64,000 nucleotides of DNA from Leucoraja ocellata (Eukaryota). A program made the translations under genes and the position numbers. Numbering within the stretch: position 1 is the first letter of the stretch; the number at the start of each line of letters is the position of its first letter. Location: NCBI GenBank assembly GCA_036785375.1, contig JAWMAR010000023.1:7502001-7566000 (forward strand). The letters run 5' to 3'. The notes beneath the pieces were generated by a model. The model was not told where the DNA came from, searched no databases, and worked only from the letters and a program-made list of their open reading frames with translations. Of this stretch, positions 12,901-18,900 are shown in pieces.

Positions 12901-15900
12901 TGTGTCTGGCATTATGTTTGCCCTGCTTTAGCAAGGAAGATATAATAAATTGGTATTTTGTTCCCGATTATTCTCGTGAAGTTATTTGTAAACGGTTTTC
13001 TTCCATCTACTTTCAAGGATGTTCAGTTAGAGTATTTAGTTAGCTTTACACGTGGTCAAAATAATATTGATAAATGTGGAGCACATCTCAGAACATTTGG
13101 AAGAGGATGCATTGACTTGCTTTTCCTGTTTCAGCGGAGAAGAGCCCAAACCCAAGTCTCCTATCTTTGTGCGGCTCATTTGCACAGCTGGCTTGCGTTG
13201 AACACAGCCGCTTACAAGCCTGGCTGACAAGAATGACCCAAGCACCCCCAAAAGACTCTGACCAACTCGAGGTGGTGCAAGAAAACAGACAACTTTTGCA
13301 GCTTCTGACTGCGTGCATCGTTCGAGAAAACAGGTACTTTGTAGCAGAGCCCTAGTGAATGATTCAACAGTAAAGGTTGTGTTAAAGTTACTTCTCATTA
13401 TGCAGAAAAGGTGTAATAAGAATATGGCTGAAAACAATGAGTGCAGACACTCACTGAAAATGTGACTGATGATCTAGTTACAGTAAATGAGAAGGATTCA
13501 TGTTGCAGCAATCAAACCGATATCATGAGAATCAATGGAAGAAGGGTCTCAACCCGAAATGTCATGCATTACTTCTCTCCAGAGATGCTGCCTGTCCCGC
13601 TGAGTTACTCCAGCATTTTGTGTCCACCTTCATTGGAATCTAACATTTGTTAAGAATGCAGTGGCTGGTTTGCTGCAGGTGGTCACGTAAGAGATTTACT
13701 TTGGAAATTGACAAGGCATATCTCATATTGACATGTAAAATATTCTGCTAAACAGTGTAACATCCATTGATACTTTCAGGTAATTGAAAATAGCCAATAG
13801 ATGTGGGATAACCTGATTCTGTACCACACAGGAAGACAATCAATAAATGTTCATGTTAATTGACCCTCATTGACATTGTTCATTTCGGACGTGTAATAAT
13901 CGATTTACAGTTATTTCTTAGAAACGGAAACCCTTGCAAAAGCTCAAGATTGCCTGTTGTTATATGCTTGAGGTATTATCAGGTGGTTAACTTGATGCTA
14001 ATTTGTTGCCATCCACTCTTCAGCCAGGTTGGAGAAGGTGTTTGCACGGTGTTACTCAACACACTTATTCCCATGGCGACAGAGATGTTGTCCAACGGCG
14101 ATGGAACGGGATTCCCAGAGCTGATGGTTGTTATGGCAACACTGGCCAGCGCTGGGCAGGGAGGAGGACACTTGCAGCTTCACCGTGCAGCGGTGGACTG
14201 GTTAGGGAAGTGGTGAGTACCACCGGATCATTCAATGGGTTATTGCAGTTAATGAGTCAGCAAAAGGAGATTAGGGTTCAATGACAAGTCCACACGAAAG
14301 GATGTTGGCTCGAACTTTAATTAAAGAATTTTGGAAAAATGTTGGATAGTTAACAATTGGGTTAACATCTAGAAGTAATTGGACAATATTTATAGTAGTT
14401 TGTCACATTCCATTTCTCTCATAAAATGGCATTCTTTCTTTTTCAGTAAGAAATATCTCTCCCAAAAGAATGTTCTCGAAAAGTGGGAGCAAACGTAACA
14501 CAGGGGAAGGTAAGGTTGTTTGTGGGAATAAGTGTGGAGTTTGTGTATCTAAAATAATCCCAATATTTGCAGAGATTTTGTTTTGAAATCCTGTCTCTTC
14601 TTCTGGAATTTCCCCTGAGTAATGATACGTACAATACAATACAATACAATTTATTTGTCATTTGAACCCCATTGGGGTTCAAACAAAATGTTGTTTCTGC
14701 AGTGATACACACAAAAAAGAACCAAGACGCAACACAATTTACACAAACATCCATCACAGCGCATCTCCTCCTCGCTGTGATGGAAGGCAAAGACTTATCT
14801 CTCCCCTGCACTTCCCATTCCCCTCCCGATGTCAGAGTCAAAGTCAAAGCCCCCGGTGGGCGATGGTAAATGTCCCGCGGCCATTTAGCCGCGCTGGGTG
14901 ATGCAAGGCCACGCTCCGGGTCTTGGTGTTGGAGCCCCCGGCGGGCGTAGCAAAGTCCCGCAGCCATTCCAAGCCGCACGGGGCGGTGATGTAAGGCCCC
15001 GCACCAGGTAATCTTCAACCCCTCAAATCGGGCGGGTGAAGTCGCCGTTGGGGAAGCCCCGAAAAGCGGTTTCCCAGCAGGGACCCGCGGGCTCCTGGTG
15101 TTCCTGTCTGCCAGACCTGCGGTGAGCCTCCGAATCTCCGGGGTCAGGACGCAGCAGCGCGCCACCACCGCTCCTCCGCTCCGAACTCGGCCAGCTCTAT
15201 GATGGCGAGTAGGTCCGCAGGCTCCGCGACTGGAGCCCCAGGTCGTTCCTGCCGGAGGCCACTCCACGGTGCTAGGCCCCAACGACGACGGAGACCCGAC
15301 AGTGAAAAGGTTGGGTTCTTCGTGCAGGGGATAGATTTTTAAAGTTTCCCCCACCCCCCGCCCCCCACACACATACACAAAAAAATTAAAATAAAAACTA
15401 CTTTCAAACGAGACAAAAAATAATAAAAATACAGACGGACTGCAGAGGCCCTGCGACGTGAGTCACGTGGGGTGTTGTAGCGTTTGCTTGTATTCGGATG
15501 GTTTGACAATTCCTTTTGATGCTGGGTTTAACCTTTGCCGTGCAGCATGTCGGCATGCTTGACTGTGCCTGCCATATCATGACTTACCTCGCCGATGTCA
15601 TGAATGCCATGAGACAGGGCAGTGGGCAGGGATCAACACACGTACTGGTGGACGGTGAAGAAAGGGCAATTGAGGTTGATTCTGATTGGGTTGAAGACTT
15701 GGCTGTGGAAGAAGAGGACTCACAAGCAGAGGACTCGGTGAGTAGTTTGGCTAACTTGCTGGTGAATTGTAAAGTATGAAATAATATTGTCATGTCAACT
15801 GACAATGTTTTATCACAAAAGCAATCACTGGAATATTCTTTGTTCAAGGATGAAGATTCCTTGTGTAACAAGCTGTGCACATTCACAATAACACAGAAGG

Positions 15901-18900
15901 AATTCATGAACCAGCATTGGTGAGTACATTGGCCTTGTATTATCTTAGATCTTCTTCTTATCGAGTCCACACACAAGATTAGAAGTTGTTCAGCCAGAAC
16001 TGAACGCACTTCTCGGCATCTGCATACAATGGTTCTTGCGCTTCTTGTGCGTGGTGGTGGAAAGATTGGGGAAAACAGGGCCGCGACGTGAAAGCTCTTT
16101 CCTTGACCCCATTATCTTAGATGATTGTTGCATTGTATTTTAGTGTGCAGAATATTCATAGATTAGATTCATGGCACAACACAGAAACAGGCCCTATAGC
16201 CAAATGCATCCTAATTGACCAAGATGTCTATCAACACTAAGCCCAAGGGCTGAGATTGTCCTCTGTCCCTACCATCTATCTATGTTCCTGTCCAAAGTCT
16301 TTTCAATGTTGCAATTGTACGTACCTCTGCCATCTCTTCTGGCAGCCTGTTTAAAAGTTGATGAAAAGTTGTTTCTGTCACTATGGTACAAGAAGTAATT
16401 CAAGTAGGAACGGAAACTAAACTTATGAACGCACAATGTACAAATTATTTAAATTGTAGACTTGCATTGAAACATTAAAACTGCTGTAAAAGTCCATCCT
16501 TGTATGAGGAAGATAAAAATAGGCACAATCTAACTTCTTGTTTCAGGTATCACTGCCACACTTGTAAAATGGTGGAAGGAGTAGGTGTTTGTACCATTTG
16601 TGCAAAGGTCTGTCACAAAGATCATGAGATTTCTTATGCCAAGTATGGATCGTTCTTCTGTGATTGTGGAGCAAAGGAAGATGGGAGTTGTCAGGTATGT
16701 GGTAAATAAAGTTTATATTGAAGGGTAGTAGGAAACTAAGTTGGTGTAATACAGATACAAGGTACTGCAAATGCTGGTTTACAATAGATAAGACCCAAAG
16801 TGCTGGAGCTAGTCAGCGGGTCAGGCAGTATCTCTGGAGAACACTGTTGGGCGACGTTTCGGGTCAGCTCTGAAGAAAGGTCCTGGCCCGAAACATTGCC
16901 TCTCTATGTTCCCCAGAGATGCTGCCTGATATGTTGAGTTACTCCAGCACTTTGTGTTTTTTTTGTATTACAGAGCTTGCTATTAGTATTTCTGGTGGAT
17001 AAATGTGATAGAGAATTTAAAGAGCTTTTCCTGGGCAGTTCCTCACTAATGTCTTTAAAACTAATGTTATTTCCACAAACTGATCTGTGGGCTCAGAACT
17101 TCACTTTTGTTCGAAAGATTGAATGCCTTAGGTCCTTTGAAGGTTAAGGCTCACGAATAAACTATGCACATTTATCTGACAACAACTTGAAAGGGAATTC
17201 AAGATCTATAGTTGACTCAGTCTCTGTATTGGGAAACTAACCAGGAGGCACAAAGCTGGATTATATTTGAGAACATGTGGGGATTGAAGATAATGAAGGG
17301 GACTGGTTATCATATTACTGAGGCTTGCACCGTAAAAAGGTCGCTCACAGTTGAGGGGTTGTTTGTTAATATTCCCCAGTCACCGTCCTTATTGATTTTT
17401 CTCAACCGATTTTAATTTAGATTGGGTTCTTCGAGACATTTCTCAATACCATTTGCAACTTGCTTTCACATCATGTCATCGTTTCTGAATCTGGAGAATC
17501 ATATGCAGGGTTCTGTTGAAGTGAAGGAGCTTTATCAGTCATGTCATCGTTCTGCCATAAGGTGGTGGCCTGTCTAAATACTCTTCAGACTGACTGATAC
17601 GATCTAGTTGTTAAAGAAGGAACTGCAGATGCTGGAAAACCGAAGGTACACAAAAATGCTGGAGAAACTCAGCGGGTGCAGCAGCATCTATGGAGCGAAG
17701 GAGATCTCCTTTGCTCCATAGATGCTGCTGCACCCGCTGAGTTTCTCCAGCATTTTTGTGTATGGTACGATCTAGTTCTCTGGTGAATTACTTCTGAGAA
17801 TACAATTAATTTTCTCCAGGAATGTCTCCAGTCTTTCTTCCAGGGGACTGGTTATCATATTACTGGGGATTGCACCAGAAAAAGGTCGCTCACAGTTGAG
17901 GGGTTGTTTGTTAAAATTCCCAAAGAGCATAATTGGAAACTTTTACATTGTTTTCAATACACTTGGGGTGCAGTGAGCTTTTGGGCTAAGTACAACTTTA
18001 AAACACCTTGCATCTTGAACACCTGTGATATTTATATAGCACAACTCGCAACTAAGCAATATACAAAGTTATGGAGTAGTTCGGCGGTCAGGAGAATCTC
18101 TGGAGGAAATGGAGAGGTGACGTTTCGGGTCAGTACCCTTCTTCAGATAGATAGGTGACATTTCAGGCTGGGACCCTTCTTCAGACTGATTTGTAGGGTA
18201 GTTCTCTGGTGATGTCTGGGGGGTAGAAAGCTGGAAAAGAGGTGTTGGCAGGACAAGGTTTGGCAAGGGGTGAGGAGGATTTAATTGGTGGATGGGTGGA
18301 GTAAGTAACAAAGGGCAGAGATGGAAAGGAGACAAAAGGGTTTCAGGCAAGGAGAGAATAAATACCAATATAGATTGGTAACAAGTTATACAAGTTCTGT
18401 CTGAAAAGGGGCCCTGCCCAGAAATATCGCCTATCCATGTCCTGCAAAAATGCTGTCTGACCCGCTGAATTACTCCAGCACTTTGTATTTTTTTGTGCGC
18501 CAACCAACATCTGCAGTTCCTTGTGTTTACAAGAACACAGATAAGATTGAATAGTGAGAGCCACTTGTTGGTTGCGGGGGGGGGGGGGGGGGGGGATGTT
18601 AGGCAGGCAATTTGAAGATAACATTTAAATTATTTTTGTGGGTCTAAGGGCAGATGTTTAATATAATTTCCACAGGCTTTGGTAAAGCGGAGTCCAAGCA
18701 GTGGAATCAGCTCCTCCATGAAGGAATCATCTGCCTTCCAGAACGAACCACGTGTCCCAGAGAGTGCCCTGCGACATCAGAGCTCGTCTCCGGCAGATAA
18801 ATGCAAGATAATGAGTGCAGATGGCAAGACCTGCGAGGATGACAAGCCAAAGAAGAGCACCTTGTGCAAACAGATCCAGGGCTGCAGGGAGGAGCTGCAG

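Follow-up and report, generated by a model that had tools for sequence, protein, structure and literature searches.

An internally deleted Vingi-type retroposon with a predicted P4-less HDV-like ribozyme head in Leucoraja ocellata, and a probable link between such heads and the mammalian CPEB3 ribozyme

Results

The element and its host intron

The window analysed here is a 64-kb stretch of Leucoraja ocellata DNA, and all coordinates are positions within it. It contains an intron of UBR4 followed by the UBR-box exon, which spans about 16547-16700 and matches the UBR box of UBR4 in the PDB with an E value of 2.5e-30. On the opposite strand of that intron lies a short retroposon, an antisense placement already given by an earlier reading of the DNA made from the letters alone (hereafter the sequence-only reading). 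The features are as follows.

15738..16546, plus strand: host UBR4 intron (GT/AG bounds), immediately upstream of the UBR-box exon; the element is antisense to it
15951..16110, minus strand: non-autonomous retroposon of 160 bp, derived from a Vingi-type LINE (family V6) by internal deletion
16111..16122, no strand: target-site duplication copy adjoining G1 (12-bp exact direct repeat)
15939..15950, no strand: target-site duplication copy beyond the tail (12-bp exact direct repeat)
16059..16110, minus strand: HDV-like ribozyme head of 52 nt without P4; predicted cleavage 5' of G1 (16110)
16105..16110, minus strand: P1 5' strand, 6 nt, partner 16082-16077 (paired in 500 of 548 cells in 93 near-full copies)
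16096..16102, minus strand: P2 5' strand, partner 16065-16059 (paired in 590 of 619 cells)
16083..16095, minus strand: P3 (16095-16093 with 16085-16083) and L3 (16092-16086)
16077..16082, minus strand: P1 3' strand
16070..16076, minus strand: G35 (P1.1 with C21), U36 and a 5-nt linker in place of P4 (C21-G35 paired in 87 of 89 cells)
16066..16069, minus strand: J4/2; C42 at 16069 is the candidate catalytic base (80 of the 85 copies that have a base at this position carry C)
16021..16058, minus strand: remainder of the parent 5' end (in the parent copy, an ATG stands where the element has 16052-16050)
16021..16025, minus strand: deletion junction, a 5-nt overlap, 4 of 5 alike, between the parent 5' and 3' parts
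15961..16025, minus strand: parent 3' end, comprising the last ~15 codons, a stop at 15981-15979 and a short 3' UTR (84-93% identity to V6 3' ends)
15951..15960, minus strand: tail of AAG repeats

The minus strand from 16110 to 16059 reads as the 52-nt sequence quoted in the sequence-only reading, and the fold drawn there holds in its details. P1 lies where it had been placed and includes the G1-U wobble it described, together with a second wobble, U5-G; that this helix has 6 bp, against 7 in CPEB3, had passed unremarked. All seven pairs of P2 are Watson-Crick, P3 carries the described U-C mismatch at 16093 ahead of L3, J4/2 opens with C-C-A-A, a 5-nt linker replaces P4, and G1 directly adjoins one arm of the 12-bp repeat. 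With one P3 mismatch allowed, an HDV descriptor matched the window at this site only, and produced one match in 60 dinucleotide-shuffled windows. The model scan that had been suggested gave CPEB3 as the best Rfam match (RF00622, 23.9 bits, E 4.6e-4), but this falls below the gathering score of 35, which no family reached anywhere in the 64-kb window. No tRNA or other Rfam RNA was found as the element's head by Rfam and tRNA scans. In a nested fold of a family-typical copy, the first five bases pair with a CAC run behind P2, in competition with P1; fold z-scores ranged from 0.02 to -1.5 and were non-significant, although nested folding cannot represent a pseudoknot.

A dispersed family that begins at G1

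Across the genome (3.44 Gb) we obtained 1598 DNA candidates, 872 exact matches to a 3' 31-mer and 3601 translated candidates, all of which are lower bounds as family counts, in an assembly whose duplicated haplotigs inflate them; the family has thousands of copies. Removal of duplicates reduced 124 loci to 104, and one further duplicate pair (L059/L060) was recognised later. When 25 independent loci were picked by the 3' 31-mer alone, 23 had a head starting at G1 and the other two were 5'-truncated, and in contigs assembled from three to four DNA runs loose ends piled up at 16110/16111 and 15950. A search for runs that carry the element listed none from RNA. Target-site duplications of at least 8 bp, mostly 10-13 bp, flanked 46 of 62 copies, compared with 1 of 62 when the flanks were swapped.

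The predicted family consensus of G at ribozyme position 18 is borne out by 70 of 93 near-full copies (17 have A, 4 T, 1 C and 1 a gap) and by 82-93% of depth in the contigs assembled from four runs. Hence the U at 16093 in the window copy, which creates its P3 mismatch, is a change from the family base and represents decay. P3 is paired in 224 of 266 cells of the same 93 copies, and together with the P1, P2 and J4/2 figures listed above this agrees with the earlier expectation that family copies start at G1 and keep P1/P2 pairing and the J4/2 C. The core is fully intact in 21 of the 93. Non-CpG divergence is 3.8% in the head, against 5.6% and 3.2% in the body, and the copies show no sign of selection, as expected of dead copies. 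Inserted copies would thus decay neutrally after landing, and within-family covariation was for that reason discarded as a test. It should also be noted that uniform starts at G1 are by themselves no proof of cleavage, since full-length copying of an RNA of only 160 nt is frequent in any case.

An older subfamily carries the same head, and two older family copies (L329 and L332) have a 7-bp P1, with one extra G and one extra C on the two strands; in L332, both P1 strands equal the CPEB3 consensus. A genome pattern search with the upstream sequence negated returned only the older subfamily and truncated copies, and no parent. The pair L059/L060, a long copy considered as a parent, is in reality the element split by a fragment of another LINE. 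Scans of viral and metagenome sequence for the head of the window copy gave nothing or chance matches.

The parent retrotransposon

A degenerate pattern built on a reverse transcriptase (RT) motif that we take to be typical of Vingi gave 136 matches in the genome, across several families. Among these families, V1 (3.15 kb) and V7 have a single ORF with AP endonuclease and RT in about 3 kb, and Pfam found no RNase H after the RT in V1, V7 and their close full-length relatives. The family that matters here is V6: the 3' 40-75 bases of the element are matched by 21 of 23 V6 loci at 84-93%. One V6 locus, the haplotig pair L238/L239, extends for 2.78 kb between TSD-like repeats. It opens with the P4-less head of the element (84.5% over 96 nt), followed by an ATG just behind P2, which would be the start of the parent ORF, and then by sequence coding for RT; the endonuclease part is absent, and another repeat is inserted at that place. 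A search of the genome for a second V6 5' end with this head found none besides L238/L239.

Because the element shares both its head and its 3' end with V6, and the two parts meet in the 5-nt overlap, it is a short, internally deleted (bipartite) copy of a Vingi-type LINE in which the first ~90 and the last ~75 bases are kept. The sequence-only reading had taken it for a SINE-like family without a Pol III promoter; the dispersed retroposon and the absence of a tRNA or other Rfam head stand, while the assignment to SINEs gives way to a deleted LINE. Two other candidates for the parent were rejected. The top PF14529 matches, which we take to be Nimb-like, are two-ORF LINEs with RNase H and AAG tails and have no similarity to the element; families V1-V5 have the tail type in common with it, but not the sequence.

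The proteins most closely related to those of the V families are endonuclease-RT proteins of 900-1000 aa that lack RNase H; those with a named source come from teleosts, lancelet, sea urchin, starfish and insects. Pfam detects RNase H in the Nimb-like proteins and in nine more distant ones. In an RT tree made with FastTree, all V families group with the RNase-H-less proteins and apart from the RNase-H-bearing ones, and V6, V7 and V8, all three with this type of head, form one clade with a support of 0.906; the tree excludes the L1-like row, in which no residue was aligned, and three of the outgroups span less than one third of the columns. Vingi has been defined as a clade of compact LINEs with a single ORF, AP endonuclease and RT, no RNase H and dispersed insertion (PMC13708176). 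The parent fits that definition, a placement drawn from architecture and from a tree without a named Vingi or Ingi reference.

Heads of the sister families

We examined the 5' ends behind 20 endonuclease matches chosen from at least 150, and several head types were present. A strict HDV descriptor recognised 6 of these 20 Vingi 5' loci and missed both V1 copies, among others; the folds of V1, V2, L266/L267 and L268 were therefore read by eye. The V7 heads have a 7-bp P1, retain P4 and share P3, L3 and P1.1 with the flagged head, and the six that were scanned scored 49-64 bits on RF00622. Two V8 heads scored 45.6 and 29.1 bits, the latter for a head incomplete at its 5' end. Of 59 candidates scored across the genome, 56 exceeded the RF00622 gathering score of 35, the best reaching 64.7 bits, and 23 of the 56 lie on the same strand as a listed endonuclease match and no more than 800 bp upstream of it. 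The same candidate search gave no match in 14 control genomes.

Reading 26 further RF00622 matches (16 and 10) added to the V7 and V8 heads and revealed a type linked to V4, the two older family copies and a group that we call class X, which, judged by sequence, holds the heads closest to the CPEB3 consensus among those read. Of the 63 positions at which the class X head L314 aligns with the Rfam CPEB3 consensus, 56 are the same, counted by eye; the P4 loop holds three of the seven mismatches, and the entire 7-bp P4 stem is identical. A second head, L315, equals the consensus at 43 of the first 46 positions (also by eye), and in L315/L324 the sequence continues into codons for the C terminus of a Vingi-type ORF (58-63% to P0102, E 3e-6).

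Among 12 heads from across the families, 92.5% of cells are paired and 11 of 25 pairs change on both sides, including four of the seven in P2; the three P2 differences between the flagged family and V7 are all compensatory. The covariation score of the 12 heads was reached by none of 500 shuffles, and slid controls were 39-47% paired, the latter comparison carrying more weight as related sequences can beat shuffles. These patterns suggest that the P4-less head with a 6-bp P1 is a trimmed form of the P4-bearing, 7-bp-P1 head kept by the sister families.

Discussion

We consider the element to be an internally deleted Vingi-type retrotransposon whose HDV-like head sets its 5' end, and would put the probability of this reading at roughly 0.82. 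In the mechanism that we propose, transcription of a source copy would start at a promoter of the host or at an internal Pol II promoter, and the head of the transcribed element would fold as the HDV double pseudoknot; C42 and Mg2+ would then cut 5' of G1, which would free the element from the longer transcript and fix its 5' end. The endonuclease-RT of the V6 parent would bind the 3' end and copy the RNA by target-primed reverse transcription, giving rise to the duplications of 10-13 bp. The role of C42 as cleavage catalyst is suggested by analogy to C57 of CPEB3 and C75 of HDV, which are described as proton donors (PMC9901934). A 6-bp P1 and a missing P4 would be compatible with activity, as in R2 ribozymes: their P1 has 6 or 7 bp, those of silkmoths have no P4, and an abalone ribozyme carries five nucleotides in its place (PMC3774820). 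The pairing that competes with P1 may confine cleavage to a co-transcriptional window, as has been proposed for L1Tc (PMC4035085), or may weaken it.

The sequence-only reading had left it undecided whether the head is related to the CPEB3 ribozyme or converges on it. Relatedness is now clearly favoured, since the sister families are far closer to CPEB3 than the window copy is, and convergence has become the less likely of the two. Because the sister heads pass the CPEB3 threshold, which HDV ribozymes of phages and of other Vingi families do not approach, it is likely that the mammalian CPEB3 ribozyme shares ancestry with the Vingi heads and arose by exaptation of the 5' head of a Vingi-type retrotransposon, or of the head of a short derivative of one. 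On that account, which leans on sequence comparison, the head would have landed in CPEB3 intron 2 before the marsupial/placental split; V4, V6, V7, V8 and class X would be its mobile relatives and could serve as an outgroup for ancestral reconstruction; and the flagged 52-nt head would be a reduced member of this group, stripped of P4 and of one pair in P1, that nevertheless reached thousands of copies. The human genome retains an ancient Vingi trace, X12_LINE (PMC5753468), so that Vingi elements must once have been present in the mammalian lineage. Bendixsen et al. (2021) describe the CPEB3 ribozyme as not found outside mammals and as lacking outgroups, and a descent of the HDV ribozymes from it has also been proposed.

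Convergence deserves consideration here, as HDV-type cores are short and constrained, and unrelated ribozymes share bases: R2 and HDV have 21 of 27 core bases in common (PMC8256844), the Vingi family represented by L266/L267 combines the same L3 with unrelated stems, and a eukaryote-like metagenome contig carries a CPEB3-like ribozyme of 66.5 bits with no Vingi ORF or TSD behind it. Constraint on the core would not, however, account for identity in the parts that vary freely, namely all of P1, J1/2 and P2 and the 7-bp stem of P4, as seen in L314 and L315, and P4 is moreover dispensable. Nor do other HDV-like ribozymes drift towards the CPEB3 model, in that six phage HDV-F-prausnitzii ribozymes gave no RF00622 match at E<=10, seven other Vingi 5' loci scored at most 16.2 bits, and viral matches to the P3/L3 core had the full fold in 0 of 23 cases and an RF00622 match in 0 of 18 scanned loci. 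We therefore regard convergence as unlikely.

A different concern is that the head is a relic, its activity lost along with P4 and one P1 pair, and that the 5' end is set by an internal Pol II promoter at G1, like Pr77 of L1Tc, which is promoter and ribozyme at once (PMC3383444; PMC8256844). The alternative pairing that competes with P1 and the two wobbles within a P1 of only 6 bp would suit this explanation. A promoter would, however, need none of the pairings that persist: P1.1, C42 and a perfect P2 were retained after P4 was lost, the P2 differences from V7 are compensatory, and the shortening of P1 took one base off each strand. Loss of activity in the family as a whole thus appears distinctly improbable. 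The window copy itself is another matter; with U18 and an antisense orientation, it is, judging from its sequence, probably weak or silent, and being decayed it probably has no consequence for UBR4. An exaptation of this copy to regulate UBR4, comparable to the regulation of its host gene by the CPEB3 ribozyme, could be entertained on the grounds that the same insertion with its intron flanks occurs in three runs under three organism codes, one of them ~5% diverged in a flank, but the antisense orientation, the broken P3 pair, a 5-nt deletion and an ordinary divergence from the typical copy (set mean 6.2%) make this very improbable. Least credible of all is the reading of the element as a plain Pol III SINE whose tail comes from a LINE and whose fold arose by chance: although the element is short, abundant and TSD-flanked with a LINE-like 3' end, its head contains no tRNA or other Rfam RNA, is the 5' end of the parent LINE itself, and shows pairing that covaries across families against a chance rate for the descriptor of 1 in 60 windows.

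Ribozyme-headed SIDEs, deletion derivatives of Vingi and P4-less ribozymes are each already known separately. In our literature search no paper connected Vingi to a ribozyme or to CPEB3, the sole match for CPEB3 and "vingi" being the name Tvingi; Repbase, the full Rfam hit lists and patents lay outside its scope, and prior notice there is possible. If the internally deleted, ribozyme-headed element is what we propose, Vingi joins the LINE clades with ribozyme heads. The significance of this lies in the CPEB3 link rather than in the decayed window copy: among human self-cleaving RNAs the CPEB3 ribozyme, which has ties to memory, is the best known, and near-identical heads on Vingi-type elements offer a concrete origin that is testable in public genomes. 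The Vingi heads, including the 52-nt form, also constitute a set of natural variants for structure-function work. Furthermore, Vingi elements are under development as gene-insertion tools with their native 5' UTR (PMC13708176), and a self-cleaving 5' end would for this reason bear on template design.

Compared with known systems, the parent has the ORF architecture and dispersed insertion of Vingi LINEs, for which the accessible portions of PMC13708176 and PMC5753468 mention no 5' ribozyme. The derivative resembles the R2 SIDEs (Eickbush and Eickbush, 2012; PMC3414825) and the NARTc and RIME elements of L1Tc/ingi (PMC4035085) in having the 5' and 3' ends of a LINE, no ORF and a TSD; mobilisation in trans and a 5' HDV-like ribozyme, both of them predicted in our case, are common to all of these elements. 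The Vingi-1_EE derivatives of hedgehog (cited in PMC5786205) are likewise bipartite, lack an ORF, are flanked by a TSD and are mobilised in trans, and bipartite, internally deleted LINEs are, according to the same source, reported from RTE, Ingi, Vingi and R2 only. What sets the present element apart from these bipartite elements is a Vingi-type parent in a vertebrate combined with a 52-nt head without P4. Pol III SINEs are similarly short, abundant and TSD-flanked, but the family has no head derived from tRNA, 5S, 7SL or snRNA.

As to the ribozyme itself, the minimal HDV-like or theta ribozymes (PMC10879173) also lack P4, measure about 50 nt and have C first in J4/2. They are nearly confined to gut phages and often lie beside tRNAs, whereas the window head sits in an animal intron with no tRNA, and its loss of P4 would be secondary, within a retrotransposon lineage. 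The silkmoth R2 and abalone ribozymes (PMC3774820) are likewise animal HDV-like ribozymes without P4, and the abalone form also has 5 nt instead; R2, however, is site-specific, with a long J1/2 and 28S sequence in P1, while the window head has a 2-nt J1/2 and dispersed sites. With the mammalian CPEB3 ribozyme (RF00622; PMC8233481) the window head has in common P3, L3, the single-pair P1.1 and the type of P1 3' strand, and differs in its missing P4, 6-bp P1, different P2 sequence and score of 23.9 bits; the sister heads, at 35-65 bits, additionally share P1, J1/2, P2, P4 and J4/2 with it. The CPEB3 ribozyme is a conserved, single-copy intronic RNA in sense orientation in CPEB3 intron 2, whereas the window element is one of thousands of decaying copies of a mobile family, antisense in UBR4.

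Very short and internally deleted elements

Ribozyme heads were also found on insertions that carry scarcely more than the ribozyme (L314 and the pair L321/L322) and on further internally deleted Vingi-type elements (L309, L315/L324 and L317).

L314, oriented positions 38-111: ribozyme-only-like insertion of ~74 bp, flanked by 11-bp repeats with one mismatch
L309: head and ORF start followed by an AAG tail, ~212 bp in length, with a target-site duplication (TSD)
L315/L324: class X head, the type closest to the CPEB3 ribozyme, fused to the C-terminal ~55 codons of a Vingi-type reading frame
L317: head fused to reverse transcriptase (RT) sequence of the V4 family

Retrocopies consisting of the ribozyme only could account for the apparent lack of a LINE body at CPEB3. 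A CPEB3-like ribozyme with compensatory changes is also present in a eukaryote-like metagenome contig, and neither a Vingi ORF nor a TSD was seen in the region behind it.

L274/L275, 3489-3567: CPEB3-like ribozyme, 66.5 bits on Rfam RF00622

Related families and other repeats

A second Vingi-type family (L266 and L267) has a P4-less head, its fold having been read by eye; this head shares with the flagged one an identical L3 and a 5-nt linker and differs from it in P1, P2 and P3, and P4 may have been lost more than once among Vingi-type heads.

V1 is a young family, with copies ~97% alike.

L213, 3139-3846: RT of family V1

The likeness of this RT to that of the teleost Siphateles boraxobius (91% protein identity) exceeds that to other Vingi-type families of the same genome (45-61%), which makes horizontal transfer of V1 possible.

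The genome also holds young two-ORF RNase-H LINEs (L155, L156 and L157) with AAG tails and an intact ORF2 of 1246-1268 aa. The window holds many copies of inverted-repeat elements that are probably miniature DNA transposons.

Window 16790-16960: inverted-repeat element
Window 17647-17762: inverted-repeat element

Near-identical pairs are common in the assembly, comprising 21 of the 124 loci of the flagged element, and locus counts therefore exceed the true copy number.

Sequence around the predicted cleavage site

In the body of the element (window 15951-16050, minus strand), bases directly behind the ribozyme are able to pair with the 3' UTR, making the body one closed domain, the fold of which is not significant (z -1.5). 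At the other end of the ribozyme, the base preceding G1 is T in 40/62 copies of the flagged family, against a background of 0.29. This excess may be a mere target preference of the endonuclease; it also agrees with the U(-1) preference that has been described for HDV (PMC1874588).
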